From a virus, in the UHGV virus genome UHGV-0203667: a stretch of DNA of 13,326 nt. One strand, written 5' to 3'. A program made the translations under genes and the position numbers. Under the pieces are notes generated by a model. That model was not told the origin of the DNA. It searched no databases and was given only the letters and a program-made list of their open reading frames with translations. Position 1 is the first letter of the stretch, and the number at the start of each line of letters is the position of its first letter. Positions 1 to 13,269 of the stretch are shown here, one piece after another.

Positions 1-531
1 ATGTTATTTCAGAAAGATAAAGAATCAGAAAACAAAAAGCTTTTTAAAGCAATAGTAAAAATGTTCTTTAAGGAGGCCGCACAGTTCGGGGCTACTATCC
101 TGCTTATTGGCCCTTGGGCAATGGCTATCTTCTTTTACCCTGCTACCTTATTTATTGGCAGTAGCAAGTTCGGCAATGGACCGTTTCATGTGGATACTGG
201 TTTTATAGATTTTCTCCTGATCCGCCCTATAAATGCTGTTCTCAATGCTTTCTACTTCCCCACTAGTCTGGAAGGGTGGGCGGTCACCTGGGGCGTTTTA
301 GGCTTAGCATTTGCAATATGGGTGATCGGCTTTTGGTGGAATGCGATCTGTGTTCTCCTTGATATCGATGGCGGAAAAAGCCGTAGAAGCGGTGGTAGCA
401 GTGGAGCAGGTATTTATGCACATGTAGGTACCAGGGGAGCTAGTGTTACCGCAGGTACCCGATTCGCTGGCGGCTGGCTGAGCATAGGCAAACGCGGCGT
501 TAGTTGGAGAAAAAGCAAAAAACTGTTCTGA
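1..531 (+). CDS. Multi-pass membrane protein with Gly/Ser/Arg-rich basic C-terminal tail; function unknown. The ORF touches the window edge, so the true start may lie upstream or at an internal Met
   Basis: The frame is open from base 1 to TGA 529-531. There are three long hydrophobic segments (ILLIGPWAMAIFFYPATLFIG, FIDFLLIRPINAVLNAFYF, WGVLGLAFAIWVIGFWWNAICVLL). A strong intrinsic terminator follows about 8 nt downstream. Confidence 0.6.
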   Translation: MLFQKDKESENKKLFKAIVKMFFKEAAQFGATILLIGPWAMAIFFYPATLFIGSSKFGNGPFHVDTGFIDFLLIRPINAVLNAFYFPTSLEGWAVTWGVLGLAFAIWVIGFWWNAICVLLDIDGGKSRRSGGSSGAGIYAHVGTRGASVTAGTRFAGGWLSIGKRGVSWRKSKKLF

Positions 532-538
532 CCTACCA

Positions 539-562
539 GGGGGCCATCACGGCCCCTTTTTA
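539..562 (+). terminator. Rho-independent terminator of the 1-531 gene
   Basis: GGGGCC (540-545), loop atcac, GGCCCC (551-556), followed by TTTTTATTT. Confidence 0.85.
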
Positions 563-580
563 TTTATCCCTCAATTAACC

Positions 581-610
581 CCTATTTATCCCCTATTTAA
601 TGCCTATTTA
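581..610. repeat. Three direct CCTATTTA repeats at exact 11-bp phasing (581, 592, 603), with a degenerate copy at about 561
   Basis: Read directly: cCCTATTTAtc cCCTATTTAat gCCTATTTAtt. One repeat per helical turn suggests a phased protein-binding or bent-DNA site. Confidence 0.6.
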
Positions 611-691
611 TTGATTTAATCCGTTTTATGTCACAACCGCCCGGTTGACAGAGTAATAGAGAGGGTGTAACCCTTTTTCGTAATACTAATA

Positions 692-707
692 AAATCAATA
701 AGTTAGC
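692..707. repeat. 16-bp exact repeat AAATCAATAAGTTAGC (partner at 8423-8438)
   Basis: The identical 16-mer occurs at both sites on the same strand. Each lies shortly downstream of the end of a plus-strand gene (531 and 8411). Confidence 0.6.
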
Positions 708-761
708 TTAATAAGCCTTTTCTCTATTTTTGTCAAATTTAACATACCCTAAAAAACTGCA

Positions 762-795
762 AAATCTGGCTGCAAGATTATCTGCAGCTGGATTT
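762..795. other. Imperfect 11-bp hairpin or inverted repeat
   Basis: AAATC tg GCTGCA agattatc TGCAGC tg GATTT. Confidence 0.4.
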
Positions 796-981
796 CTTAC
801 ACCTCATTTTGTGGTATCACCCTGGCTAGTTTGTGCATAAATTGAACAGTTTTTAACATTTCCTCCTCACCTGGTAACCACACAAAAAGCTAAAAACGAG
901 GCACAGATAATCTTAGAGGCCTGTTTTCTTGTTATCACTCTGGAAACGCCGTAGAAGTGATTTTGATGAAAGATGACCTAC

Positions 982-1000
982 CCTATTACACCCCTATTTT
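982..1000. repeat. Second pair of CCTATT(A/T) repeats at 11-bp phasing (982, 993)
   Basis: cCCTATTAca ccCCTATTTT; the same core and phase as the 581-610 cluster. Confidence 0.45.
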
Positions 1001-2011
1001 TTGTTATCACAATTGCATCCTGTGCGGTGTATGGCTATGTACTGAAAGCGGTTTTGGGTGTGGGTGTCAGAAATATCCATTAGCGGTATTAATACCTGTC
1101 AGATGTTCGTCTGAGGTGCCAGGCAGGCGCTCCCCTACCTCCCTTTTTTCTTCTAACAATTCTCAAATATCCGACCACTACTGACCACGTTGCTATTATG
1201 TTAATTCTTAAGCTTTGCTGTATGTTGTGCACATTATTTATTCAGGTGGCTGTACGTAAATTCTGTGCCCACTGATCATGATTTTTAAATCAGATTTTGT
1301 AGTGCGCTTTATTAGTGTAGATAAGATCTATTATGTTAAATGCAATTTTCCCAACCCTTCAAATCAATGACTTACGTGTAAGCATGCACTAACACCCCAC
1401 ACAGCACATTAGCCGTATAGATGGCTATACCCCACATATTTGATTGTTTTGTAGTCATTCCCCTGATCATTTAACCAGTATAGCTTGTTATCTGCAGACC
1501 ACAAAATAGGAATTTACATCTGATTAACATAATCTGTTAGCATGATCACTATTACCCACACAACAATAACCCCATGTAAGCCTCTTCAGGCAATTTATCG
1601 GCGTGTTGGTGTGAACAGTCTTTCATGTTCTTTATGAATGCATTGTCCTGTGTGAGGGAAGGATGGACTGCCTCAGGGGCCATACTTATGATGCCCGGTC
1701 AACATAGCTATTGATAAAATCAACGGGTGTTGATCTACATATTTCCCACACATGAGAGGAAATCAGAGCAAAGAGAGAGGAGAGAGGTTTGTTAGTCACA
1801 TATGGTGATTTGAGCTCATCTCAAACCTTCTACGAAGGCCTTTGCTAGTCAAAATAGGTCAATTGACGGCTAATACAGAGTAAAAAATCAGATGCAATCA
1901 CTCCCCACCTGTTGGGATTAACGGCCCCGAGTCAAGGCCTATGCAACGAGGGTATTTCCTACAACCCCTTTCAGTCATACTCAGGCACCACACCCCGGTA
2001 AATATTACCCT

Positions 2012-2320
2012 ACTACCCCGGAAGATTTCTCCGCACTACCTGTAAAATATTTTTACTACTAACACCCTCGAGACGAGGGCTATTTGCACGAGTTTAACGC
2101 TCTCGGGAAGAGCTATAGGCGATTCTACCTGTGAAGAATTTTCACACCTGTGTGTTTATACAGTCATACTTTCCTGTTTTGCAGTCATTGCACCCATGAT
2201 ACACAGCCTCTAACTACTGAAGATTTCTCACTACTTAACCACCATACCTACCCACACCCCTGAGAATTTCTCACCACTACTACCGAAGATTTCTCACTAG
2301 TACCCCTGAGAATTTCTCAC
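2012..2320. repeat. Iteron field: six direct repeats with core GA(A/G)(G/A)ATTTCTCAC, mostly flanked by ACTAC; candidate replication-origin or regulator-binding array
   Basis: Cores sit at 2021 (GAAGATTTCTCcg), 2219, 2262, 2285 and 2308, plus a degenerate palindromic variant GTGAAGAATTTTCAC at 2131-2145. The last three cores are exactly 23 bp apart. A short AT-rich stretch (taaaatatttttac, about 2043-2056) lies inside the field. A wHTH initiator-like gene lies about 1.1 kb downstream. Confidence 0.65.
2146..2165. promoter_or_regulatory. Candidate second LexA box (weaker)
   Basis: ACCTGTGTGTTTATACAGTC has the full CTGT-N8-ACAG core. It matches 14/20 positions of TACTGTATATATATACAGTA and lies inside the iteron field. 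Confidence 0.3.
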
Positions 2321-2342
2321 TCTAATAGATAAAGGAATAGAT

Positions 2343-2387
2343 CAATAAAAAGACCTCCCCCCTAACCCCCAGGGGGAATGGGGAGGG
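2343..2387 (-). terminator. Strong rho-independent terminator readable only on the minus strand, with no minus-strand CDS upstream of it
   Basis: The minus-strand RNA reads CCUCCCC auu CCCC cug GGGG uua GGGGAGG followed by UCUUUUUAUU. On the plus strand the hairpin has no U tract after it. Confidence 0.75.
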
Positions 2388-2389
2388 AT

Positions 2390-2830
2390 CAGAGAGTGGG
2401 GAAGGTTTTCTAAGGGAAAAGCTTAACCCACAAATGAAAGCCTAAAGAGCATGAGCGACTCTTTAGGCAATCTGTGTGGGGTGACAATGTATTCCATACA
2501 TGACACGTCACCCAATTGTGTGTGGGGAGCGTAGTGCTATAGCACGTAGCTTTATAGTGTGGAGTCCGGATAAGAGACTTCTGTTTCCAATCCGGACCGT
2601 TTAAGCGAGTGGTTTCTCGCGCGGGTGCACGCACACATATATAAAGGATACACTCATAAATCGAAAATAAGGCCCCTAAATGGCCTTCTGGCTGCATTAA
2701 CCTGTGTGAGTAGTGCAATTGCATTACCTGACCTCTAAATCGCGTTAGAATCGATTTTAGAGCGCTTAAGGCAAAAGTGCTCTCCCTCCCTTGTGGACTT
2801 GCTTGTACCTATAGCACACCTAAATGATAA
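2390..2830. ncRNA. Candidate structured non-coding RNA or structured DNA region (strand unresolved)
   Basis: There is no credible ORF. Hairpins and palindromes:
- 10-bp perfect hairpin at 2440-2468.
- 13-bp hairpin at 2479-2513, flanked by direct TGTGTGGGG repeats (2473-2481 and 2519-2527).
- 12-bp palindrome GTGCTATAGCAC at 2534-2545.
- 8-bp perfect hairpin at 2564-2597.
- Hairpin at 2669-2687.
- 10-bp palindrome TGCAATTGCA at 2715-2724.
- Two mutually exclusive hairpins at 2733-2762 and 2759-2783. The latter has a G-T pair that only works on the plus strand. Confidence 0.35.
2658..2687 (-). terminator. Possible second minus-strand intrinsic terminator
   Basis: The minus-strand RNA reads AAGGCC auuuagg GGCCUU followed by AUUUUCGAUUU. 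On the plus strand there is no U tract. Confidence 0.4.
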
Positions 2831-2839
2831 TAATTCTCA

Positions 2840-2868
2840 TTGACAATTGGTTGACAATATGATAAGAT
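2840..2868 (+). promoter_or_regulatory. Sigma70-type promoter P1 (TTGACA-17-TAAGAT)
   Basis: -35 TTGACA at 2840-2845, 17-bp spacer, -10 TAAGAT at 2863-2868. A second TTGACAAT sits 11 bp downstream (2851-2858) and a third at 3031-3038. Confidence 0.65.
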
Positions 2869-2903
2869 TATAAATAGGGGGAGAAACAGATCCGGAGGTC
2901 AAT

Positions 2904-3053
2904 GTGGAAATTACAGATGTAATAGCGATCATCAACCTGGCTGTACTGTGGTGCGGTGTTGCCTACATAGCCGGAGTAACTGCAATCGACAACCTTGAAG
3001 AAAAAATGATAGATAAATACAAAAAGATTGTTGACAATCTCGCAAATAGCTGA
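2904..3053 (+). CDS. Small (49 aa) single-pass membrane protein, not in the supplied ORF track (GTG start)
   Basis: GGAGG (2895-2899) plus 4 nt precedes GTG at 2904. The translation is VEITDVIAIINLAVLWCGVAYIAGVTAIDNLEEKMIDKYKKIVDNLANS, ending at TGA 3051-3053. It has a hydrophobic N-terminal helix and a charged C-terminus. The gene has its own promoter (P1) and a downstream terminator. Confidence 0.55.
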   Translation: MEITDVIAIINLAVLWCGVAYIAGVTAIDNLEEKMIDKYKKIVDNLANS

Positions 3054-3059
3054 TAAAAT
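3031..3059 (+). promoter_or_regulatory. Sigma70-type promoter P2 (TTGACA-17-TAAAAT) embedded in the 3' end of the small ORF
   Basis: -35 at 3031-3036, 17-bp spacer, -10 TAAAAT at 3054-3059. It would start a transcript at about 3066, upstream of the 3109-3141 terminator and the 3183 gene. Confidence 0.5.
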
Positions 3060-3108
3060 ATAAATCATAGGGTAATTCTCATCATAGTGAATTTCCTTAA
3101 ACAAAAAT

Positions 3109-3411: not shown

Positions 3412-4308
3412 ATGGCAAGTAATTACGGGGAGGTTTTTAATCCCCATTTCGAACGCCTCATTCAGTACACTTTTGATAAACCAGTAGCAACAACAATTGC
3501 TAATAAAAAGACTGGAAAAACAAAAGAGCGATTTAATTTAGACCTGATAGAGGTAACAATTTATGGAAAAATGGCAGGTTTTCATTTAAACGGGCAAGAA
3601 ATATTTATCTCAGAGCAGACCTTAGCAAAAATATGTGGTGTGAGTGATAGAAAAATCATCGAATCTATCAAAACTCTGGAAAATGCCGGGCTTATTTCTA
3701 AAGAAAGCCGGAAAGGTATGTCTAACATTTACAAACTGTTAATTACTCCTTCTCAAATCTGCAAAATGTGTGATGAACAGAAGATAGAACCAATGAGTAA
3801 TGCAGGTGGTGAAGATAAACAGCCTCAGGAAGCCCCAAAACAAGCCACACAGCAAGCTAAAAAGGCTAAAGTAGTGCAATTGCCTACCCAAGACACTAAA
3901 GCGCCTCAAATTAACGCTGTTAGTGACAAGCCACGCCGGGGCCGTCCTGTGAAAGATGTAACCGATGGGGGCTGGATTGTCCTGGGTGAGAGTGAAGCTA
4001 AAGATAGAATGCGCTCACTGTGGGAAAGCAAATACAAAGGTTTAAATAAACGTTGCCCGATCCGTTTGTCAAAGATTCAGGAGGATTTTTACACCACAGA
4101 GGAGGTAATACGCCATAAAGGCAATAGAGACGGTGAAATCTGGAAACCGGAAGAATACTGGCATTTAACCAGACCTGTTTTTATTTTTGCAAATAAACTT
4201 ATTGGGATGGGATTTGAAATATTGTTAGATCAAACTTACGGAGATTATCCTGAAATATTGTGGAGAAATGTTAGAAAGAATAAAAAAGGCATTTTAGAGT
4301 TTAGATAA
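3412..4308 (+). CDS. Putative replication-initiator/O-like DNA-binding protein: N-terminal winged-HTH, Q/A/K-rich linker with AT-hook (RRGRP), C-terminal domain
   Basis: The start is moved from 3355 to ATG 3412 (GGGGGA SD; removes the overlap with the 3183 gene). The motif ISEQTLAKICGVSDRKIIESIKTLENAGLISKESRKG is typical of wHTH initiator or DnaD-like N-termini. KPRRGRPVKD is encoded around 3931-3948. The iteron field lies upstream. Confidence 0.6.
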   Translation: MASNYGEVFNPHFERLIQYTFDKPVATTIANKKTGKTKERFNLDLIEVTIYGKMAGFHLNGQEIFISEQTLAKICGVSDRKIIESIKTLENAGLISKESRKGMSNIYKLLITPSQICKMCDEQKIEPMSNAGGEDKQPQEAPKQATQQAKKAKVVQLPTQDTKAPQINAVSDKPRRGRPVKDVTDGGWIVLGESEAKDRMRSLWESKYKGLNKRCPIRLSKIQEDFYTTEEVIRHKGNRDGEIWKPEEYWHLTRPVFIFANKLIGMGFEILLDQTYGDYPEILWRNVRKNKKGILEFR

Positions 4309-5662: not shown

Positions 5663-5683
5663 CATCAATGAGAGGGTATGCCT

Positions 5684-6118
5684 ATGAATATTGAAGAAAT
5701 GATAGTTGAATTCGAAGAGGGTGATTTCCTGGAAGAAGGGGAGTTTAAATACTCCCGTTTTAAACAGGCGTTATTTAGCAGCGATGATAAACCCCACGTT
5801 AGTGATCTTAACGACGATGATTTATGTCGCTGGGTATGCACCCGCTTATATGAAGATGGAAAGTATACAGGCCAAAACTTTCCAAATCTCTATTTCAAAG
5901 CACAAACATTTGAGGAAGGGCAAAGAGTGAAAAACCTGGTCGATAAAATGCTGTCAGCCGGATATTTGCATAAAGAATTATTAAATCCTAAAGCTGAAAG
6001 CAAGCGCCATTATATTTTTGTGTGGTCTGTGGGGGATAAGTGCCCACTGCATGGGAGTCCTTCCAGGACCTTAGCTAAAGCTAAGCCCGTTGGGTCTGTT
6101 AAGCGTAAAGGCAAATGA
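5684..6118 (+). CDS. Hypothetical protein (144 aa), acidic N-terminus, possible winged-helix C-terminal half
   Basis: ATG 5684 is preferred over 5678 because GAGGG lies 7 nt upstream of it. The stop TGA at 6116-6118 lies just before the next start codon. Confidence 0.7.
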   Translation: MNIEEMIVEFEEGDFLEEGEFKYSRFKQALFSSDDKPHVSDLNDDDLCRWVCTRLYEDGKYTGQNFPNLYFKAQTFEEGQRVKNLVDKMLSAGYLHKELLNPKAESKRHYIFVWSVGDKCPLHGSPSRTLAKAKPVGSVKRKGK

Positions 6119-6308: not shown

Positions 6309-8411
6309 ATGGCAATGAAGGAAGTCGCCAGACTAACAAACGTTATTTACTGGGACTCTGATAAATCCTCCTGGCGAAAAGAAGTTAAGCGCTTGGAGGA
6401 TTATAAAAAATCCTGGAAGAAAGCTACCGACGATATAGCTAAAGCGGATTTTAAATCTAATCAGGCTGTGCTCAGAACACAAAGAACACGCGCTAAGGTG
6501 GAAGAGCAGATCGCCAGAGCACAGAAGAAACAACGTGCTCAGGCTGTCAGCCGTCTGACCGGGGGCAATAATCCGGAGCTCTCCTCTATGCGCAAGTTCT
6601 ATCAGCAGCAAGCCAGAGAGGCCGCCAGACAACAAAAACTGTTAGATCGTAGTGTTGGAGATGTTCAGCACAGAAAAGCACGTGTAGGGGCCAACAGTGC
6701 ACGAATCAGCAGCATGTTTGATGGCTCCCTGGTTGCTCAGTTCCAATCCAGAATTCAAAGAGTTAATGCTGATTATGCTAAAGGGGCTATTAACCTGCAG
6801 ACCTATAATCAGAAAATGGCCCGACTCAGATCTGAAATGAAGATGGCAACAGCAGAGGCCGGAAAATTTCAGAGCAAACTGGATAGAGTTGCGATCACAG
6901 GATCTAAGCTGCATGACAACCTGGGGAAACTAAATTCTACTTTAGGCAAGATAGCTATTGGCCTTACTGCCGCTGGCTGGGGTGTTCAGCGTGCTGTTAG
7001 TGGTGCTATGGGTAGCCTTGCAGATCGCAACAGTGCCTACTTCGGTTTGATGGCACAGAACAAGGATGATAAAGCCAAGACTGATCAGCAGATGGCCTAC
7101 GTCAAAAGAATCTCTTATGACTACGGGATGGATCAGCGTGAGACCGAAGGCGGTTTTATGCGCTTTGCTGCAGCCACACCGAGCATAGAAGAGAAAGATA
7201 AACAGGCTCTTTTTGAGGCTATGGCTATTAAAGGTCGCTCAGTGGGTGCTACCGCAGACCAACAGAACAGGGCTATCGTTGCACTAGGGCAAATATATAG
7301 CAAGGGCGGTCGGGTGTATGCGGAAGAGCTTAAGGGCCAACTTTCTGAAGCCCTGGCAGGTTCTCAGGTAGATTTCACTAAGGCCGCTATCGATGCCGGA
7401 GTCATCAAGAAAGAGGAAGAATTTAATAAAGCCCTTGAAGATGGCAAGATCACCATGGATAAGCTTCTCCCTTCTTTGGTGAAAATCTGGTCTGCAGCCA
7501 AGAATACGAAAGCCTTTGCTGAATCCATGAAACAGCCAGAAGTAGCAATGCAGCGCATGAAAAACAGCTTTAACGAGCTGGCGATTCAGTTTATGGGTGT
7601 TGTGGATCCTGCCGATGGCGTTGTTAGCTTATCTGAATCTCTGATCTCCATCTTCGAAGACCTCACCACTGATATGGACGGCAGCGGGAGCGCGGCAAAA
7701 CAGTTTGGTGAAGCAGTCGGTGCTGCCATGCGGGAGATCATGTATTGGGTAGGCTTCGCTAAGGGATATATCGAGGTCAAGGCTAAAGAGTTCGGCATGA
7801 CCGGATCAGAGGTTGGCGAGCTTATCGGGAAACTAGTAGTCGGCTTAGCTGGTCTGAAAGTTATTACCACACTGCTTTCCCCTCTAACCGGATTTGTTTC
7901 ACTTGTCACCCAACTGATAGCCTTGTTAGGTAAAATCCCTGGTATGAGCAAGCTTATGGCATCTGCCTCAGGTGGAACGGCAACAGGAGCAGCAGTTATC
8001 AGTGCAGGCTCTAACGCTGAAAGAAGCTTCATTGATGGCAAGACGCAGGAAATGAGTAAGGAGAACTCAAAACAGGGTGCTTTGTTTGAGCTGGGAAGAT
8101 TTGTCAGCAATGCTGGCGCACTGTTCACACCTGGCGGTGATACTGGTCCTTTGTTCGATCAGGTCAAAGGCTGGTTTAATAAAGGGCCAACATTGACAGT
8201 AGACACTGGCATCAGACCAACACCAACGGGTGGCATAGCTATCCAGAATGGTGGATATCAACCAGTCCAAGTAAATGTAGCCCCACAAGGTGAGATTTCC
8301 GGCAAATGGGAGATAACCATCGATGAGGGGGGAATTGCCAGGGTGATCCAGAAGGAAGTCAGCGATCAGTTGGATTGGAAAGCCACACAGGAATCTAACC
8401 AGCTTTTCTAA
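6309..8411 (+). CDS. Phage tail tape measure protein (700 aa)
   Basis: The N-terminus is a long K/R/Q/A-rich coiled coil. The central region GQIYSKGGRVYAEELKGQLSEALAG is typical of the tape-measure core domain. A hydrophobic segment LIGKLVVGLAGLKVITTLLSPLTGFVSLVTQLIALLG follows, then a Gly-rich C-terminus. A GAGG SD lies upstream. Confidence 0.85.
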   Translation: MAMKEVARLTNVIYWDSDKSSWRKEVKRLEDYKKSWKKATDDIAKADFKSNQAVLRTQRTRAKVEEQIARAQKKQRAQAVSRLTGGNNPELSSMRKFYQQQAREAARQQKLLDRSVGDVQHRKARVGANSARISSMFDGSLVAQFQSRIQRVNADYAKGAINLQTYNQKMARLRSEMKMATAEAGKFQSKLDRVAITGSKLHDNLGKLNSTLGKIAIGLTAAGWGVQRAVSGAMGSLADRNSAYFGLMAQNKDDKAKTDQQMAYVKRISYDYGMDQRETEGGFMRFAAATPSIEEKDKQALFEAMAIKGRSVGATADQQNRAIVALGQIYSKGGRVYAEELKGQLSEALAGSQVDFTKAAIDAGVIKKEEEFNKALEDGKITMDKLLPSLVKIWSAAKNTKAFAESMKQPEVAMQRMKNSFNELAIQFMGVVDPADGVVSLSESLISIFEDLTTDMDGSGSAAKQFGEAVGAAMREIMYWVGFAKGYIEVKAKEFGMTGSEVGELIGKLVVGLAGLKVITTLLSPLTGFVSLVTQLIALLGKIPGMSKLMASASGGTATGAAVISAGSNAERSFIDGKTQEMSKENSKQGALFELGRFVSNAGALFTPGGDTGPLFDQVKGWFNKGPTLTVDTGIRPTPTGGIAIQNGGYQPVQVNVAPQGEISGKWEITIDEGGIARVIQKEVSDQLDWKATQESNQLF

Positions 8412-8422
8412 TATTGTGATCT

Positions 8423-8438
8423 AAATCAATAAGTTAGC
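8423..8438. repeat. 16-bp exact repeat AAATCAATAAGTTAGC (partner at 692-707)
   Basis: Identical to 692-707. It lies 12 nt after the tape measure stop codon. Confidence 0.6.
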
Positions 8439-8460
8439 CTGACCGGATAAACTCCAGGCA

Positions 8461-8493
8461 AGAAAAAAGCCCCTAAGTGTTAACAAAGGGGCT
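8461..8493 (-). terminator. Rho-independent terminator, strong on the minus strand and weak at best on the plus strand
   Basis: The minus-strand RNA reads AGCCCCU uuguuaacacuu AGGGGCU followed by UUUUUUCU. On the plus strand the stem is followed by CUUCUCC. Confidence 0.75.
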
Positions 8494-8913
8494 CTTCTCC
8501 GGTATCCTTTTGATGCGGGGCAAAACCTGCTAACAAAAATCAACCTCTCGCGAGACTAATGTTAGCAGGTTGCCGGAAGGTAAGTCAACTCCGGCCTATA
8601 AACCTTAAAGCGACTATAAAATTGCCCCGCCAATTGTGATGATCCGACCTTTGAGGCGGGTCCGGTGCCCAGGGGGTGCAGTGATGCACAAACCAGGCAA
8701 CGATAAACAGGCTAACAGTGATAGCGGCGCTCTCTCAGCGCACTAAATCCTAACCAGTCCGGGAAAGAGGCTGGCTCTATCGACCGCTCATGCACGGGAC
8801 AATGCATACCTGATAAAGGATTCTCACAAGGGACCAATCGCGAGAAAAGAAGTGGAAAGGGGCTGATTTGTGGTGTATCACTACGGCCTCAAAAGACACC
8901 CTATTGCCTTTTT
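8494..8913 (-). ncRNA. ORF-free, highly structured roughly 420-nt region between the last minus-strand CDS and its terminator; candidate structured 3' UTR or ncRNA
   Basis: The supplied track has no ORF here. A perfect three-way junction spans 8515-8630: outer stem GCGGGGCAA/TTGCCCCGC (9 bp), inner stem ACCTGCTAACA/TGTTAGCAGGT (11 bp, with a 24-nt loop holding the palindrome TCTCGCGAGA), and inner stem GCCGGA/TCCGGC (6 bp). Further hairpins are GTGCA gtga TGCAC (8676-8689) and GCGCT ctctc AGCGC (8727-8741). The strand is assigned from the terminator orientation only. Confidence 0.4.
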
Positions 8914-9372
8914 TCAGCCTCTCCCCACATTTGACCAGTATTTGATTGCACCGATCAAATCATCATAGTGGCGCATTGCATCATTGAAGCCTTTATAGCT
9001 TGCCCATTGTGGGGAAACCTTGTTGTTGCTGAATTGCCCACTAATCAGGATAGTCTCCAGAATGTCGGCGTATCGCTTGCCAATTCGCTTCCTGACGGCC
9101 TCAGAGCTCCCACCCTTTACGATTGCATTAATCAGGGCTTTTGTGTGTCTCAGGCTCTCATAGAGCATTGCAGCGTGGGCAGATTCCATAAAGGAGCGCT
9201 TAGGCAGATCACCCCACCCCTCAGAATGAATTGCTGCCAATGTGGCGTAATTCAGGCCGCTATAGTGTTTCCCGTCATCCCAGCCAACCGCTACACCTTC
9301 CATCTGTGAGAGCTCTTTATGCAGCTTATCCATCATGCGCTTGTCTATGGTGCAACGGACTTTCGGACTCAT
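8914..9372 (-). CDS. Putative head-tail joining or tail-completion type virion protein (152 aa)
   Basis: ATGA start/stop overlap with the upstream gene. The motif AAIHSEGWGDLPKRSF resembles the HEFG..P.RPF motif of HK97 gp10-like and morphogenesis proteins. This was recognised by eye only. Confidence 0.6.
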   Translation of the reverse strand: MSPKVRCTIDKRMMDKLHKELSQMEGVAVGWDDGKHYSGLNYATLAAIHSEGWGDLPKRSFMESAHAAMLYESLRHTKALINAIVKGGSSEAVRKRIGKRYADILETILISGQFSNNKVSPQWASYKGFNDAMRHYDDLIGAIKYWSNVGRG

Positions 9373-10181
9373 TTGTTGATCTCCGTGATGTCATCAAGCA
9401 ACATGTTGGCCTTATCAATCATCGTTTCGTGGAACTCATTCGACACGACAGACTTATCACCTGCTGCAATCTTTCCCGCTGCCTCTCCCTGTGCATATTC
9501 CCCGCGATGCTTAGCCCTGGTTGATTTCGTAGCAGCATTGCCAGCGTTACTACCCTCTTTAGCACTGTTAACAGCACCCTTTTGCTGTGTTTTATTCACC
9601 TTCTTACTGTTAGTGAAAACTCCGGCATTTTCGACCATCTTCACCTTGAAGGTGCGGAATTCTTCAAAAGTGCAATCAATAGTGATGCAGTCGCCAGAGG
9701 AAGAGCTACGCTTAACTTCACATTTCGTCATGATGAAGTTCTCAAGGAGTCCGACATCTTCACCCACCAGGCTGATAATCTGGCGCTTGTCTCTCATTTC
9801 CATAAGTGCCTGAACAGCGGCAGCAGGGCGCATAGATTCACGGGGATTATCTGGATCAGTGTTCCGGTCGATGTAGTTCTCTTTCCGGATGATATGAGGG
9901 GAAGAGGTAATAATACCCGTAAAGCTGACAGATTTATCTTTAATGACGGCATGGTCTGACATGGTGGTGCCATCCTCGACCGCATAGCTCGATTTCTCAA
10001 CAGGGAACGAATAGCTGACATCAGAGATAGAGTCAAAGAAGATAGCCACATTATCGGTATAGTTGAAGCCATCCATCATATTTTTGTTTTGTGAATATCC
10101 CCCACACATAACAGTGAATGCAGGAGATCTCGACTCAGCTTGTTTTGCAGCTGTCAGAGCATCACTAGCCATATTAAACAT
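9369..10181 (-). CDS. Putative virion structural protein (270 aa) with K/A/G-rich C-terminal region; the N-terminal half is reminiscent of Dit-like/baseplate-type domains (weak call)
   Basis: GGAGG lies upstream. The start may be ATG 10181 or ATG 10172 (MASDALT), which has better SD spacing. It sits inside the structural operon. Confidence 0.6.
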   Translation of the reverse strand: MFNMASDALTAAKQAESRSPAFTVMCGGYSQNKNMMDGFNYTDNVAIFFDSISDVSYSFPVEKSSYAVEDGTTMSDHAVIKDKSVSFTGIITSSPHIIRKENYIDRNTDPDNPRESMRPAAAVQALMEMRDKRQIISLVGEDVGLLENFIMTKCEVKRSSSSGDCITIDCTFEEFRTFKVKMVENAGVFTNSKKVNKTQQKGAVNSAKEGSNAGNAATKSTRAKHRGEYAQGEAAGKIAAGDKSVVSNEFHETMIDKANMLLDDITEINK

Positions 10182-10587: not shown

Positions 10588-11631
10588 TTATTTAGCCTTG
10601 GCTTTTGCCAGAGCAGCGGCGGCGGTGTTTTTAACACTCACTTTAACCACCACCTCGGGCATCATATTCATAAATGCGTATGAGCTCTCGCAAAAGACCT
10701 CGCGCTTAGCTCTTGAATCTTGCATATACATGAAAGCTTCACGTGCAGCGCCGTTTGCCAGCTGCAGATTGCGAGCGCAAGGGCCAAAAAATTGAGTATA
10801 AACACCCATATCGCCCAGTGCATAAGGCTGGAATTGTGGGACCAGATAAGCAGTATTCTCTGGCAGACTATCCATTTGCACCACACGCAGGGCTAAGCCC
10901 GGAATGCGGAAGGTCGGGAAGCCCGGCAGAATATCCTCAGGGAACATCAGACCTTTGTCGGTAATGTTCTGATTGCCGAACAACAGCACTTTACGAAGCA
11001 GCTCGTCAGTCTGAATTGCAGCAAAGAGTTCAGCACGGCAGAACAGGGTGAAACCACGCAGGGCACGAACGACACCACGCTGTTTAACCTTGCTCAGTGC
11101 AACCAGGTCCTGCAGCTGTTTAAGGATATCTTGAGCTAGATCCACTTCAGAGGTGGACTGTTCTACTCCCAGCAGTTCGCACACATTCAGTTCTTTACCC
11201 TTGGTGAGGATAATTTTGTTCTCAAAGAGAGCAAGCTGGCGTGCTTCTTCGTGGGTCTGGCGTAAGCCTTCGCCAAGCTGAATAACACGACGAGCGGTTA
11301 CAGACTCTAAATTCTCTTCGGAATCTTTGCCCGGAACACGGATACCTTGCCAGTCTGACGGGAATATGGCCGAGCTGGCGGCTGTAAAGGCCATGTCGCC
11401 CGTGCCCGTTTCACGCTCATCTGCGGTAATGGTAGCCATCTGTTCACCGTAGCGCGGATACTGACCGAAAGCGGTTTGTTTCACCCTGCGAACTTTGTCG
11501 TACTCAAATTTGAACGTCGAAGAATAGACGGTAGTATTAAACACGTTCATTGCTGAAATAATCTGGTTATCCAGCGGGATATCTTTAATCAGACCACACA
11601 GATCGCGAACTTCGAATTCTTTCTTAGCCAT
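10588..11631 (-). CDS. Major capsid protein, lambda gpE-like family (347 aa)
   Basis: The start is reset to MAKKEFEV at 11631, with AAGGAGG 6 nt upstream. The track start at 11730 gives a Cys-rich extension that overlaps the upstream gene. The size, the position after a roughly 110-aa decoration-like gene, and the C-terminal pattern (...ESSYAFMNMMPEVVVKVSV) resemble lambda gpE (...SAPLMLLADPDEFVSVQLA). Confidence 0.75.
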   Translation of the reverse strand: MAKKEFEVRDLCGLIKDIPLDNQIISAMNVFNTTVYSSTFKFEYDKVRRVKQTAFGQYPRYGEQMATITADERETGTGDMAFTAASSAIFPSDWQGIRVPGKDSEENLESVTARRVIQLGEGLRQTHEEARQLALFENKIILTKGKELNVCELLGVEQSTSEVDLAQDILKQLQDLVALSKVKQRGVVRALRGFTLFCRAELFAAIQTDELLRKVLLFGNQNITDKGLMFPEDILPGFPTFRIPGLALRVVQMDSLPENTAYLVPQFQPYALGDMGVYTQFFGPCARNLQLANGAAREAFMYMQDSRAKREVFCESSYAFMNMMPEVVVKVSVKNTAAAALAKAKAK

Positions 11632-11978: not shown

Positions 11979-12452
11979 TTGATCACCTGCGATTTAAATT
12001 AACTCCCCTCAAAGGGCTCAGGTATAACCTCTCAAACCACGACAGGCTCGGGCCGAAAAGTTATGCCGGAAATCTAAAGGGGGATTGATATAAGGAGAGG
12101 GAGATAGCCCCGCACCGTCCAAGCGGGGGCTATTCCATATGGGGAAAACCAACAACAGTTGGCTGATAGTTCACTGCATGGTTACGGTTGCTAGAGAGCA
12201 CTATCACGAAAGGCACTCCCCCGAATCAGTTCAGGCTGCGGTCACATCAGCGGGGAAATACCTTTCGGGATAGCTACCCACACCGAAAACCCGCAAAAGA
12301 AAACTGTGTGGATAACTAGCCCAATAGGAGAATTAATCGACCACTCTAAGATGATCAGGGTAGTGTTATTTATAAGGCGGCACCGCTACCTGGTCGCCGT
12401 TACTTTGGAGGAAAATACGGCAAATCACCTTCGCTAAATGATTCACGGTATA
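11979..12452 (-). other. Roughly 470-nt ORF-free structured leader between the LexA-controlled promoter and the head genes
   Basis: There is no ATG ORF with an SD. Structures include a 10-bp bulged stem ATAGCCCCGC/GCGGGGGCTAT (12104-12133), CCAAC aaca GTTGG (12149-12162), CCACAC/GTGTGG (12279-12311) and others. No hairpin followed by a U tract was seen on the minus strand. Confidence 0.5.
12307..12315 (-). promoter_or_regulatory. Perfect DnaA box (TTATCCACA on the minus strand)
   Basis: The plus strand reads TGTGGATAA at 12307-12315. It is a single copy, so chance cannot be excluded. Confidence 0.3.
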
Positions 12453-12470
12453 CTGTATATTATATCAGTA
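12451..12470. promoter_or_regulatory. LexA (SOS) box
   Basis: TACTGTATATTATATCAGTA keeps CTG-N10-CAG intact and matches 15/20 positions of TACTGTATATATATACAGTA. All mismatches are A/T swaps in the spacer. It overlaps the -10 element and the start site of the minus-strand promoter. Confidence 0.8.
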
Positions 12471-12487
12471 TTTACTCACATTGTCAA
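12459..12487 (-). promoter_or_regulatory. Perfect consensus sigma70 promoter (TTGACA-17-TATAAT) directed leftward toward the head operon
   Basis: The minus strand reads TTGACA atgtgagtaaatactga TATAAT. The -35 is at 12482-12487 and the -10 at 12459-12464. The predicted start site is near 12452. Confidence 0.85.
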
Positions 12488-12576
12488 CACCCTGATTATA
12501 TAAATTCTAATAATTAGCGTAGTAACGGTATTTTCAGACCTCTATCAATCCCATCAATACGTCACCTCATCCCTGA

Positions 12577-12621
12577 CCTGCTTTGCAGGCTTGGCACACA
12601 GCCAAGGTCGCAGCTATGCGA
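12577..12621 (+). promoter_or_regulatory. Triple tandem hairpin module, copy 2 (partner at 5117-5159)
   Basis: CCTGC ttt GCAGG | CTTGGC acaca GCCAAG | g | TCGCA gcta TGCGA. It shares GCTTG..CAAGG and CGCAGCTATGCG with copy 1, and the stem differences are compensated. Confidence 0.6.
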
Positions 12622-12629
12622 CTCCTATC

Positions 12630-12660
12630 ATCTATCATAACTTTTTCATTCGTGATAGAT
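12630..12660. promoter_or_regulatory. 8-bp inverted repeat ATCTATCA-N15-TGATAGAT (possible operator), with a direct TATCAT duplication
   Basis: Read directly. It lies between the hairpin module and the right-hand small genes. Confidence 0.3.
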
Positions 12661-12757
12661 ATCTTTTGATCAATATCAATGTTTTCCTGGGATTTGCCCG
12701 GCTATAGTTCGAATCAAGGAAGGGGAGCATTGATAGCACCAAAACCGAACAAACAAA

Positions 12758-12772
12758 TCAACTTCTCGCAAA
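12758..12772 (+). repeat. Conserved 5'-UTR motif TCAACTTCTCGCAAA (exact copy at 13301-13315; related TCAACCTCTCGCGAG at 8540-8554)
   Basis: The 15-mer is identical at both sites, on the same strand, and each is followed by a purine-rich SD-like sequence (AAGGTGA or AGGGG). Confidence 0.55.
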
Positions 12773-12783
12773 AGGTGATAGTT

Positions 12784-12906
12784 ATGGGTATCAAGAACAG
12801 TGCCAGCGCATGGCAAAAGGCCAGGTTTCATCACCCACACATTGTTAAGGCAATTGAGGTGGTTGGAGTGTTAGCCCTGATGTTAGCTCTGTGTGTGGAG
12901 GTGTGA
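12784..12906 (+). CDS. Small (40 aa) membrane protein
   Basis: AAGGTGA lies 5 nt upstream of ATG 12784. The translation is MGIKNSASAWQKARFHHPHIVKAIEVVGVLALMLALCVEV, with a hydrophobic C-terminus. The track start at 12679 has no SD and would translate through the conserved UTR motif. Confidence 0.5.
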   Translation: MGIKNSASAWQKARFHHPHIVKAIEVVGVLALMLALCVEV

Positions 12907-12907
12907 G

Positions 12908-12976
12908 ATGGGCAAAGGAGGCAAAGCATTTTTTAATAGGTCTGGCTATCCTGGATGTTCTACTAATCATGATTGA
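12908..12976 (+). CDS. Possible 22-aa peptide (MGKGGKAFFNRSGYPGCSTNHD)
   Basis: GGAGG lies 6 nt upstream of the ATG, and the ATG is 1 nt after the upstream stop. The ORF is very short, so confidence is low. Confidence 0.25.
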   Translation: MGKGGKAFFNRSGYPGCSTNHD

Positions 12977-13008
12977 GCGGAGTTTATGAACAGCATTGAG
13001 AGGAGTTT

Positions 13009-13269
13009 ATGACGGGGGCTAAAGATATCAGGAGACTGAGGGAAGAGCTGATAGCTGAAATTAAAGCTAAGGCAAAGCAAATGGAGATAGCCGCGCAAAT
13101 GGATGTAGCGGAACAGATGTACAAGATGGTTGAAGAGGGAACACCACGACAGGTTATCGCTAAAACCTTCGGTGTGGGGATCGCCACCGTGCACAGAAGG
13201 CTGAAAGCCTATGCCGACTACCACAACATTGAGAGAGGGGAGGATGGGAGATTTAAGAAGAATAAATAG
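13009..13269 (+). CDS. Small HTH DNA-binding protein (86 aa), coiled-coil N-terminus
   Basis: GGAG lies upstream of the ATG. The HTH segment is TPRQVIAKTFGVGIATVHRRLKAY. Confidence 0.75.
   Translation: MTGAKDIRRLREELIAEIKAKAKQMEIAAQMDVAEQMYKMVEEGTPRQVIAKTFGVGIATVHRRLKAYADYHNIERGEDGRFKKNK

Follow-up and report, generated by a model that had tools for sequence, protein, structure and literature searches.

A constrained gap without credible genes, probably a cis-acting control region, in a phage-satellite-like circular plasmid of Escherichia coli

The window analysed here, the whole 13,326-nucleotide stretch UHGV-0203667, is one complete circular element, a plasmid-like satellite of approximately 13.3 kb. 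The preliminary description had read it as a phage-type genome, but the replicon is not a complete phage. It encodes an HK97-type capsid protein, a tape-measure protein and a Dit-like tail-tube initiator that is approximately 50% identical to that of rV5-like myophages. Pfam and PHROGs scans of the element, in which several small proteins received no assignment, returned no match to terminase or portal families. With this phage-satellite gene content the plasmid looks like a phage satellite, and the protein similarity suggests that rV5-like phages may act as its helpers. Between an upstream gene (1–531) and position 2903 lies a gap free of credible ORFs, which recurs in at least 20 related circular E. 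coli plasmids of 13–14 kb. It is unannotated yet present in every syntenic relative; absence from such relatives, raised earlier as a ground for doubt, was not seen. About 29% of the 13 kb element is constrained non-coding DNA, an unusual share among phage-related replicons. Searches with the capsid protein against viral contigs, with Rep against genome contigs and with an HTH alignment against metagenome contigs yielded no more distant relatives. The capsid family is tight in a 5.8-billion-protein database, with one 79% outlier on a contig that ends before the gap. The gap DNA had no match in the phage database in near or distant mode, and we found no description of the plasmid family in the literature. 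The features of the gap are collected in Table 1.

Table 1. Features of the gap and a cassette copy outside it, in window coordinates (a point marks features without a strand)
Feature	Position	Strand	Basis or remark
Intrinsic terminator of the upstream gene (1–531)	538–558	+	GGGGGCC-atca-CGGCCCC then T run
Five 11-bp phased repeats, CTATTTATCCC type	561–615	.	repeat family search
Constrained non-coding core, 1.1 kb, many invariant blocks	701–1790	.	ORF-free
ORF	957–1184	+	at least 40 aa
ORF	1089–1232	-	at least 40 aa
Block common to window and rV5, TGCCAGGCRG...TTCTTMTAACAATTCTCAAATATC	1107–1171	+	blastn, nhmmer
Candidate Xer (dif/cer-like) site, AGTGTAGATAA-GATCTA-TTATGTTAAAT	1314–1341	+	sequence match
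Octamer CCCACAYA, four copies (1396, 1431, 1555, 1745)	1396–1752	+	motif count
ORF	1552–1683	-	at least 40 aa
Hypervariable field of single inverted-repeat sites	1791–2212	.	repeat search, relatives compared
Four terminal inverted-repeat iterons, CTGA(A/G)(G/A)ATTTCTCAC	2213–2322	.	starts 2213, 2256, 2279, 2302
A+T-rich stretch adjoining the iterons, 82% A+T	2323–2350	.	composition
G+C-rich poly-C/poly-G hairpin, resembling a minus-strand terminator	2351–2400	.	hairpin scan
ORF	2410–2724	-	at least 40 aa
11-bp hairpin with minus-strand T-rich tail and TTTGTGGG	2440–2468	-	left end of cassette array
Motif, cassette A, motif: TCTGTGTGGGG, hairpin TGACAATGTATTCCATACATGACACGTCA, TTGTGTGTGGGG	2469–2528	.	
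Terminal structured module T1	2529–2660	.	z -3.5 to -4.9
Terminator-like hairpin AAGGCC-atttagg-GGCCTT then ATTTTCGATTT	2669–2687	-	
Mosaic hairpin modules	2690–2810	.	relatives compared
Overlapping divergent promoters	2830–2868	.	consensus-level prediction
Three-hairpin cassette copy outside the gap	6057–6094	+	covariance model R1: 43 bits, E = 5.5e-8

The claim that the region holds no credible ORF stands for 532–2903, where no listed ORF behaves as coding. The earlier count of only two ORFs is right in that 957–1184 and 2410–2724 are the largest, but the listing contains four of at least 40 aa. Relatives differ in the core by indels of 1, 11 and 21 nt, which are incompatible with coding. 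We consider it very improbable that the gap is decaying coding sequence, made up of degenerating prophage pseudogenes, or that it houses missed small protein genes. A stop-free frame of 96 codons (894–1181) is retained in most relatives, and automatic gene callers at times predict a 72- or 104-aa gene at 2410–2724. However, a 1-nt insertion at 996, inside ORF 957–1184, shifts the frame in two relatives (L018 and L020), and ORF 2410–2724 runs across two terminator hairpins and the cassette array. Neither shows an excess of mismatches at the third codon position: the rates at positions 1/2/3 were flat in the 894–1181 frame (0.060/0.031/0.058) and in ORF 2410–2724 (0.096/0.104/0.098), compared with 0.056/0.040/0.153 in the element's genes. 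Six-frame translations of the gap had no Pfam match at E ≤ 1 and no PHROGs match at E ≤ 0.1, and the tiled pseudogene fragments named earlier as a sign of a decaying prophage did not appear in these scans. The gap also evolves more slowly than synonymous-like sites, the opposite of decay.

At the left end, the terminator of the upstream gene is conserved in all relatives. The 11-nt phased repeats that follow were correctly recognised in the preliminary description; relatives carry 5–7 copies in differing variants. They are the sole hints of a partition function, an earlier suggestion for which we found no support, and the element encodes no partition NTPase. The core is ORF-free but under purifying selection: mismatches run at 0.052, as against 0.153 for the third positions of codons in the element's genes, and codon periodicity is absent, in a family whose close relationship (90–97% identity) limits the power of conservation and in which recombination may distort local substitution rates. 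A long ncRNA in the core is unsupported: the MFE z-score is about 0 on both strands, showing no excess of RNA structure, and Rfam was empty. Rfam had no match in the whole window at the gathering score and, for 450–3100 at E ≤ 5, only a spurious miRNA match (E = 2), with C4 and IsrK absent. Scans of the DNA for tRNA and tmRNA genes and for Chi sites found none, and DnaA boxes were not enriched, the sole perfect box lying in the element's second gap. CCCACAYA has eight matches in the window compared with 0.71 expected, six of them within the gap. The short palindromes reported earlier exist, but of their coordinates only 1279–1292 was exact; on rereading, GTCAATTGAC lies at 1858–1867, AAGGCCTT at 1835–1842 and ATCAAC-gggt-GTTGAT at 1719–1734. 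Approximately 800 nt of the core carry no assigned feature.

The core contains a candidate Xer site with the 11 + 6 + 11 bp layout of dif, cer and psi; the central region of Xer sites is 6–8 bp, and plasmid Xer sites have accessory ArgR/PepA or ArcA sequences and are recombined by XerCD. Its XerD arm (1331–1341) is an exact 11-mer match to that of dif, whereas on reading the sequence only 7 of the 11 positions of its XerC arm match dif (GGTGCGCATAA); the spacer is the 6-bp GATCTA. The dif 28-mer itself was confirmed against the literature. Positions 1315–1344 are invariant across the plasmid family, and a multimer of the plasmid exists, a 39.6 kb trimer record. XerCD might resolve multimers at this dif-like site. 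Both rV5 and the window also have a word resembling the XerD arm in non-Xer contexts, and a 19-mer from the site retrieved four new relatives together with two chance matches in unrelated DNA that had no XerC arm.

To the right of the core, the iteron field noted earlier is real, with nine matches to GARRATTTCTC compared with 1.3 expected. The four terminal iterons are dyad-symmetric sites with start-to-start spacings of 43, 23 and 23 nt, and are the predicted Rep binding sites of an origin. The site types found singly at 1791–2212 (2015–2035, 2036–2056 and 2125–2145 among them) are those used as terminal iterons where a relative has a different Rep allele. The adjoining A+T-rich stretch is a putative DNA unwinding element, and the G+C-rich hairpin beyond it lacks its T tail in most relatives. 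Cumulative GC skew reaches its minimum at about 2250–2550. The C-over-G bias described for roughly 1380–2330 is visible as negative skew at 1351–1650 and 1801–2400, but it is not continuous, being slightly positive between them. Rep is encoded at 3412–4308, approximately 1.1 kb downstream of the iterons, and its N-terminal wHTH matched Pfam HTH_36 (E = 1.3e-7) and PHROGs replication-initiation/O-like families (down to E = 1.3e-10). Each of the five Rep allele groups has a terminal iteron type of its own, and the iterons co-vary with the N-terminal wHTH. One relative, L004, does not follow this pattern; it differs at residues 84, 85 and 89 of the HTH recognition helix.

By sequence, 2213–2350 has the anatomy of a lambda-O-type iteron origin. 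The earlier suggestion of an origin gains support from iterons that lie beside an 82% A+T stretch and whose sequence tracks the Rep wHTH allele. Plasmid replication would start with Rep dimers binding at the terminal iterons and opening up the A+T stretch. The reference system is ori-lambda with its O protein. As in lambdoid and iteron plasmid origins, the initiator has an N-terminal wHTH (HTH_36; 'replication initiation O-like'), and an A+T-rich stretch follows the four dyad-symmetric sites, of which the last three lie 23 nt apart, in line with the regular spacing of about two helical turns of such tandem sites; specificity for the iterons goes with the initiator's N-terminal domain, its C-terminal domain being conserved. 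Lambdoid origins lie inside the initiator gene, but here rep begins only at 3412, well beyond the last iteron (to 2322), and no P-like helicase loader was recognised in the plasmid. The plasmids also differ from known iteron origins in that each has single copies of the site types of other Rep alleles.

The array at 2440–2810 consists of hairpin cassettes bracketed by YTGTRG / TGTGTGGGG repeats. Three minus-strand terminator-like hairpins were found (2356–2378, 2440–2468 and 2669–2687), where two orphan terminators had been described. At 2440–2468, which is a candidate terminator of a leftward transcript, three unrelated hairpin alleles retain the same tail. The neighbouring site at 2469–2528 holds 0–3 cassettes per relative, invariably in the order C, A, B. 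An alternative module, T2, replaces T1 in other relatives, and an extra TTGACAAT promoter module is inserted at 2690–2810 in some. Only 2360–2810 is strongly structured, with z-scores, computed for 2425–2825, of -4.6 (minus) and -5.0 (plus), values too close to assign a strand by fold energy. We also dropped a UUCG-tetraloop argument for the plus strand because the stem is equally compatible with a 3-bp triloop.

From the alignments and covariance model, the three-hairpin cassette is a dispersed element of variable presence, with its pairs kept by compensatory changes. In 7 of its 12 pairs the changes are compensatory (98.6% paired), and none of 500 shuffles reached the observed score. All changes in the stems are from one Watson–Crick pair to another, and G-U (G-T) pairs are absent. 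The model found 42 matches in 23 loci at no fewer than nine sites. The array copies all share one orientation, whereas copies at other sites occur in both. In the window, the copy outside the gap lies at the 3' end of ORF 5678–6118 and is preceded by TGTGTGG / TGTGGGGG. This ORF has 144 aa in the copy-bearing relatives L015 and L016, and 127 aa in L014, which has no match at the site. The cassette was absent from the chromosomes of 5,426 E. coli genomes. A hairpin-2 pattern combined with the covariance model gave only pattern-driven matches of 16–19 bits in viral contigs, and a three-motif pattern gave only unrelated CRISPR-like or tandem arrays in viral and genome contigs, all of them unlike the window. 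CRISPR arrays have identical repeats of at least 23 nt, regularly spaced unique spacers and associated cas genes. We rejected a CRISPR array here, where the repeat is only 9–14 nt and variable and the place of 'spacers' is taken by shared hairpin cassettes whose order is fixed; among the 19 window ORFs tested, Pfam revealed no cas-type domains.

Immediately right of the array, a rightward promoter, TTGACA-17-TAAGAT (2840–2868), and a leftward one, TTGTCA-16-AATTAT (2857–2830), are predicted, with duplicated TTGACAAT boxes at 2840 and 2851. The region is 96% conserved; promoter-like sites are not enriched (9 found versus 7.2 expected). These overlapping predicted promoters and their duplicated boxes make the proposed immunity or control region plausible. 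They would act as a switch for the rightward rep/tail operon, and the leftward promoter would drive transcription of an untranslated RNA across the cassettes as far as the terminator at 2440–2468, facing the origin. All of these elements, promoters, leftward transcript and terminator alike, are predictions at the consensus level.

A counterpart of the gap exists in rV5 and other Vequintavirus phages, as a 2.5 kb region that has been labelled 'non-coding' in rV5, with no function assigned (PMC3606486). This region (LR694610.1, 104002–106558) is ORF-free and conserved in 122 phage records. It shares with the gap a block that is invariant in 21 relatives of the plasmid; blastn aligned 24 nt at 95.8% (E = 2.7e-4) and an nhmmer profile matched rV5 105009–105064 (E = 0.013), giving a homologous stretch of about 56–65 nt. 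The two regions have 45 10-mers in common, compared with 17.4 ± 6.0. The covariance model detected the cassette in rV5 at E = 1e-6, the sole copy with E below 0.01 in the 138 kb genome, and this copy lies inside the conserved non-coding region. Rfam found nothing real in the rV5 region. The two regions are alike in size and lack of ORFs, in the TAACAATTCTCAAATATC block, CCCACACA octamers and CCTGAAGAGG sites, in a three-hairpin cassette with direct repeats on both sides and in a dif-like site. They differ in that only short stretches (24–65 nt) can be aligned and the shared elements vary in order and orientation. rV5 has one cassette and the plasmids several; the transcription units on either side of the rV5 region are convergent, whereas a divergent promoter closes the plasmid gap; and the dif site of rV5 is near-perfect, whereas the XerC arm of the plasmid is degenerate. 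A 'DNA translocase FtsK' label on a small gene adjoining the rV5-type region was unsupported by Pfam, and we did not use it. The rV5-like virulent phages are under exploration for biocontrol and therapy.

We conclude that the 13.3 kb circular plasmid, with its phage-satellite gene content, probably has in 532–2903 a control region that is non-coding and acts mostly in cis, with the functions of the core (701–1790) and of the cassette array inferred from sequence. Of the composite originally proposed (an origin, partition or immunity control region, or a long ncRNA), the origin is supported and control is plausible, whereas we saw no evidence of partition and no support for a core ncRNA. Proteins of a helper phage or of the host might use the motifs shared with rV5 as sites for replicating, resolving or packaging the element. 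We offer, tentatively and as something short of probable, a more specific reading: that the plasmid gap is a functional mimic of the Vequintavirus region. The common signals (three-hairpin element, G-rich octamer, TAACAATTCTCAAATATC block and dif-like site) would then mark the cis-acting replication, resolution or packaging centre of Vequintavirus, and an undescribed family of plasmid-borne satellites would have copied and amplified them to hijack its helper.

Other explanations concern the right-hand part. It seems rather unlikely to us that about 2430–2825 is a functional ncRNA, either a leftward RNA repressor or a copy-number control RNA, with the cassettes as modules and the CCCCACACA linkers as protein-binding or processing sites, by analogy to the RNA immunity of P4, P1 and N15 or to plasmid countertranscripts. 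The strong fold of 2425–2825 on either strand would suit such an RNA, as would the clean consecutive hairpins, with unpaired linkers, formed by the minus-strand cassettes, the compensatory changes, the hairpin and T tail retained on the minus strand in three unrelated alleles, and the leftward promoter-like site. However, no Rfam family matched, C4 and IsrK included, an antisense-target scan with RNAduplex, a poor test on long sequences, gave no outlier, and whole cassettes are gained and lost freely. Variation that is Watson–Crick only fits DNA hairpins equally well. Because cassettes elsewhere lie in both orientations relative to transcription and G-U intermediates are lacking, an RNA role for 2360–2810 is only possible. 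We are similarly doubtful that the array is mainly an accumulation of selfish or recombination-spread miniature palindromes, akin to REP/BIME elements or MITEs, in a permissive zone with no dedicated plasmid function. Like REP/BIME and BOX elements, the cassettes are short hairpin units that lie between genes or at gene ends in both orientations, form mosaic arrays with linker motifs and vary in copy number between strains. At least nine insertion sites are each filled in some relatives only, short YTGTRG-type direct repeats flank the units, arrays differ by the presence or absence of whole cassettes, and one copy lengthens an ORF. REP/BIME elements, by contrast, have many copies in host chromosomes and an associated RAYT transposase. 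The plasmid cassette, a set trio of hairpins, was not found in E. coli chromosomes, occurs also in a virulent phage and travels without a transposase or RAYT-like gene; Pfam and PHROGs assigned no transposase (RAYT) family in the element and gave only sub-threshold HTH-domain matches. Within the array, orientation and the order C, A, B are fixed, and the single significant copy in the 138 kb of rV5 sits exactly in the conserved non-coding region, which argues for function there.

A further idea, which we judge distinctly improbable, is that the cassettes, together with the polar G-rich octamer, take effect in single-stranded DNA during replication, serving as ssi-type priming signals or as signals for helicase loading in the lagging-strand template on both sides of the origin. 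The array does lie directly beside the iterons, the A+T stretch and the G+C-rich stretch, and the iterons mark a change of strand for the strict octamer TGTGTGGG, with minus-strand copies to the left (1403, 1562 and 1752, plus 10108 and 12841 further round the circle) and plus-strand copies to the right (2473 and 2519). The stems contain no G-U or G-T pairs, and rV5 encodes a T7-gp4-like helicase-primase (PMC3606486). But the motif copies are few, looser versions of the motif are not polar, cassette orientation is mixed at other sites and, on reading the sequence, no primase recognition feature is consistently present.

The plasmid family offers a defined, testable iteron origin, with a specificity that varies between natural Rep alleles, and a new dispersed three-hairpin element with clear covariation that is common to these plasmids and to virulent phages. 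The shared motifs give a first way into the function of the rV5 'non-coding' region, on record since 2013 but unexplained. Should the satellite reading be right, this element would be a plasmid-borne satellite of a virulent myophage in E. coli, and the motifs would point to how its helper recognises it.

The 13,326-nt window is one entire circular element, and the sequence of its long ORF-free stretch (532-2903; the gap) is identical in two contigs of ~13.36-13.38 kb. The window resembles some ten complete E. coli 'plasmids', each 13.2-13.7 kb long, and one 39.6 kb trimer. Its genes encode capsid, tape-measure and Dit-like proteins and a replication protein, Rep (see table), and none of its proteins matched a terminase or portal family. 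For the Dit-like protein, identity with the tail-tube initiator of rV5-like (Vequintavirus) myophages is ~50%; for the capsid and tape-measure proteins it is only ~25%. The capsid family is tight, with at least 92% identity and every member coming from 13-14 kb E. coli contigs. We infer that the element is a phage satellite borne on a plasmid, or is related to such satellites. The trimer (L009, NZ_CP043822.1; 39,610 bp) is a head-to-tail array of a 13.2 kb unit, in one copy of which the capsid and baseplate genes are disrupted and additional hairpin cassettes are present. In a 30 kb contig (L011, NTNY01000053.1), the locus at 13450-21041 is a family member joined to resistance DNA (APH-family aminoglycoside phosphotransferase genes, a DDE transposase and a tetR-family gene); the junction reflects either co-integration or a join introduced during assembly.

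Coordinates of features in the window, and of the dif-like site in phage rV5 (L214 is a segment of the rV5 record)
Feature	Position	Strand	Remark
Left edge of gap	532-700		semi-variable
Core of gap	701-1790		conserved
Candidate Xer site	1314-1341		AGTGTAGATAA-GATCTA-TTATGTTAAAT
Hypervariable field	1791-2330		
Short segment	2331-2450		conserved
Structured part	2451-2810		mosaic
Promoter region	2811-2903		conserved
Rep	3412-4308		HTH_36 / lambda-O-like kind
Tape-measure protein	6309-8411		
Dit-like tail-tube initiator	9369-10181	minus	
HK97-type capsid protein	10588-11631	minus	
Small HTH_7 protein	13009-13269		
dif-like site of rV5	LR694610.1 105181-105208 (L214 5181-5208)	minus	GGTGCGCATAA-TGGGTA-TTATGTTAAAT; both 11-bp arms equal E. 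coli dif

The preliminary description had reported a stretch without any credible ORF at 532-2839, and our analysis bears this out. The gap holds only four ORFs, of 40-104 aa, and its 2.2-2.9 kb counterpart is unannotated in every relative. Relatives differ by 1-nt indels at 850, 996, 1292, 1461 and 1680 and by an 11-nt insertion near 1690. Six-frame translations of the gap found no match in Pfam or PHROGs, and Rfam and tRNA scans of it were empty. Substitutions in the gap lack codon periodicity, whereas codon positions 1, 2 and 3 of the element's genes mismatch at rates of 0.056, 0.040 and 0.153. No open frame in the gap shows the behaviour of coding sequence. An alignment of 17-21 distinct sequences divided the gap into six parts. 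The core is constrained, because its mismatch rate against ten relatives (0.052) is one-third of the third-codon-position rate and near the rates at first and second positions. The gap is both non-coding and constrained. Pseudogene decay and missed genes are unlikely explanations for it. Two further ORF-free stretches, 8412-8913 and 11979-13008, are also conserved (mismatch rates of 0.018 and 0.090) and bring the non-coding share to ~29%. We also observed that the segments 8380-8620 and 12550-12670 fold with unusual stability (z as low as -4.3 and -6.0), and that the ORF-free stretch 11979-13008 carries a perfect DnaA box, TTATCCACA, at 12307-12315 (minus) and a fourth TTGACAAT box at 12480-12487 (minus), the latter probably serving the leftward capsid operon as promoter or operator.

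The left edge opens with the upstream gene's terminator (538-558), after which come 11-bp phased repeats, in five to seven copies, and a TTGACA hexamer that is conserved. Sliding-window MFE z-scores across the core were ~0 on both strands, which argues against a large structured RNA there. Numerous blocks in the core are invariant, and one of these (1315-1344) covers the candidate Xer site, whose XerD arm is the same as that of dif and whose XerC arm matches at only 7 of 11 positions; XerCD may resolve the element here. The octamer CCCACAYA is strongly enriched in the window (8 copies against 0.71 expected), with four plus-strand copies in the core and two minus-strand copies in the structured part.

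A predicted iteron origin in the gap matches the element's Rep. The hypervariable field consists of inverted-repeat sites, 15-17 bp long, whose centres are A/T-rich and whose outer half-sites vary, and the three to five tandem copies nearest 2325 vary between relatives, following the N-terminal allele of Rep. Across the window and its relatives (L001, L002 and so on), terminal iterons are CTGA(A/G)(G/A)ATTTCTCAC with Rep type a (window, L001, L015, L018 and L020), ACCTGTTGGAATTTCC with type b (L002, L006 and L017), CCTGTAAAATATTTTTAC with type c1 (L003, L014 and L016) and CGGTAAATATTTCCG with type c2 (L005 and L009); type d (L008) has a terminal iteron of its own type, and the unrelated Rep of L007 and L011 comes with its own inserted iteron block. 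The sole exception is L004, which pairs a type-a Rep with CGGA-type sites; residues 84, 85 and 89 of its Rep, within the HTH recognition helix, are not those seen in the window and L001. Rep itself is a two-part mosaic, with ~130 highly variable N-terminal residues and ~170 C-terminal residues that are nearly identical across types a, b-like L002 and d. The iterons are followed by an 82% A+T stretch (2323-2350), which Rep would open, and then by a G+C-rich hairpin region. Cumulative GC skew reaches its minimum at the iteron/A+T region, although it is confounded with gene orientation. This anatomy is that of a lambda-O-type or iteron origin, the latter an already known kind, except that the predicted origin lies 1.1 kb upstream of rep and that each element retains single sites typical of other Rep alleles. 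In the window, such single sites (CGGA, GTAAAA, GTGAAG and CGGTAAAT types, the iterons for other Rep alleles in relatives) lie at 1993-2145; they may be recombination relics or may titrate a competitor's Rep.

To the right of these sites, the folds of 2425-2825 are much more stable than those of shuffled controls, whichever strand is taken (z of -4.6 and -5.0). In the array here, a hairpin (2440-2468) comes first; next are units that each combine the G-rich repeat YNTGTGTG(TG)GGG with a hairpin cassette. Beyond these lie a terminal module of one of two kinds (T1 or T2), mosaic hairpins and, last, the promoter region. A relative may have from 0 to 3 cassettes (A, B/B', C/C' and D), and the order C, A, B never varies; what distinguishes one array from another is therefore which whole units have been gained or lost. 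Three consecutive hairpins are common to cassettes B, B', C, C' and E. In hairpins 1 and 2, both sides have changed in 7 of 12 pairs, 98.6% of cells are paired, and the covariation score was reached by no shuffle. Because the cassettes compared have no G-U intermediates in these hairpins, the covariation does not fix the strand, or RNA versus single-stranded DNA.

This three-hairpin element is dispersed as well as covarying. A covariance model built solely from the relatives' cassettes (R1) matched the window at 6057-6094 (plus; E=5.5e-8), where the 3' end of ORF 5678-6118 lies, and gave 42 matches over 23 related loci. Projected on the window, cassettes occupy at least nine sites (~2347, the array, 4562, 6075, 6151, 8384, 10570/10617, 12006 and 13298), each filled in some relatives only, in both orientations, and between genes or at gene ends. 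YTGTRG-type direct repeats usually bracket the copies. Among the 5,426 E. coli chromosomes searched, none carried the array. The copy at 6057-6094 lengthens its ORF, whose protein has 144 aa in L015 and L016 (copy present) and 127 aa in L014 (no copy); the following gene probably starts at ATG 6121, not TTG 6090.

Rival readings would make the array a functional regulatory RNA, a set of selfish mini-elements or a series of single-strand priming signals. An untranslated leftward transcript may run through it: on the minus strand the cassettes give clean folds that leave the CCCCACACA linkers single-stranded, a promoter-like site (2857-2830, leftward) overlaps a strong predicted rightward promoter (2840-2868), and the left-end hairpin has a minus-strand T-rich tail in three unrelated alleles. 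An antisense-target scan for this putative RNA gave no outlier.

The gap is also related in content to a non-coding region of rV5-like phages. R1 has a single match in rV5 at E=1e-6, the others being two overlapping matches with E above 1. This match lies between convergent transcription units, inside a 2,557-nt stretch without annotated genes (LR694610.1, 104002-106558) that the rV5 genome paper termed 'non-coding' and gave no function (PMC3606486). The stretch is 90-99% conserved, and almost without annotation, in 122 Vequintavirus records. A 24-nt block of the window (1148-1171) is nearly identical in it (E=2.7e-4), and a profile search lengthened this block to about 56-65 nt (E=0.013). The gap and the rV5 stretch have 45 exact 10-mers in common, among them TTTCCCACACA, TTGCCTGAAGAGG, AAGATTTCTC and TATTATGTTAAAT, compared with 17.4 +/- 6.0 (maximum 37) for other equal-length rV5 segments. 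The block, the 10-mers and the cassette thus reveal a common motif vocabulary, in which order and orientation differ.

In rV5, the word TATTATGTTAAAT belongs to the dif-like site. Phage nomo has such a site at about 1775-1802 of its segment L215, with one change in the XerC arm, and both sites sit within the conserved 2.5 kb non-coding region. A small gene beside this region is annotated 'DNA translocase FtsK' (nomo_87, L215 3115-3378, minus; L214 7123-7386, minus), for which Pfam gave no support at E<=0.01. In the literature searched, we found no description of an element this small in which so much DNA is constrained yet non-coding, of a three-hairpin element occurring both in a family of plasmids and in a group of virulent phages, or of a dif-like site in rV5's unexplained non-coding region. 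A dif-like site is unexpected in a virulent phage. Helper or host proteins may recognise the motifs common to the gap and the rV5 region, in replication, resolution or packaging.
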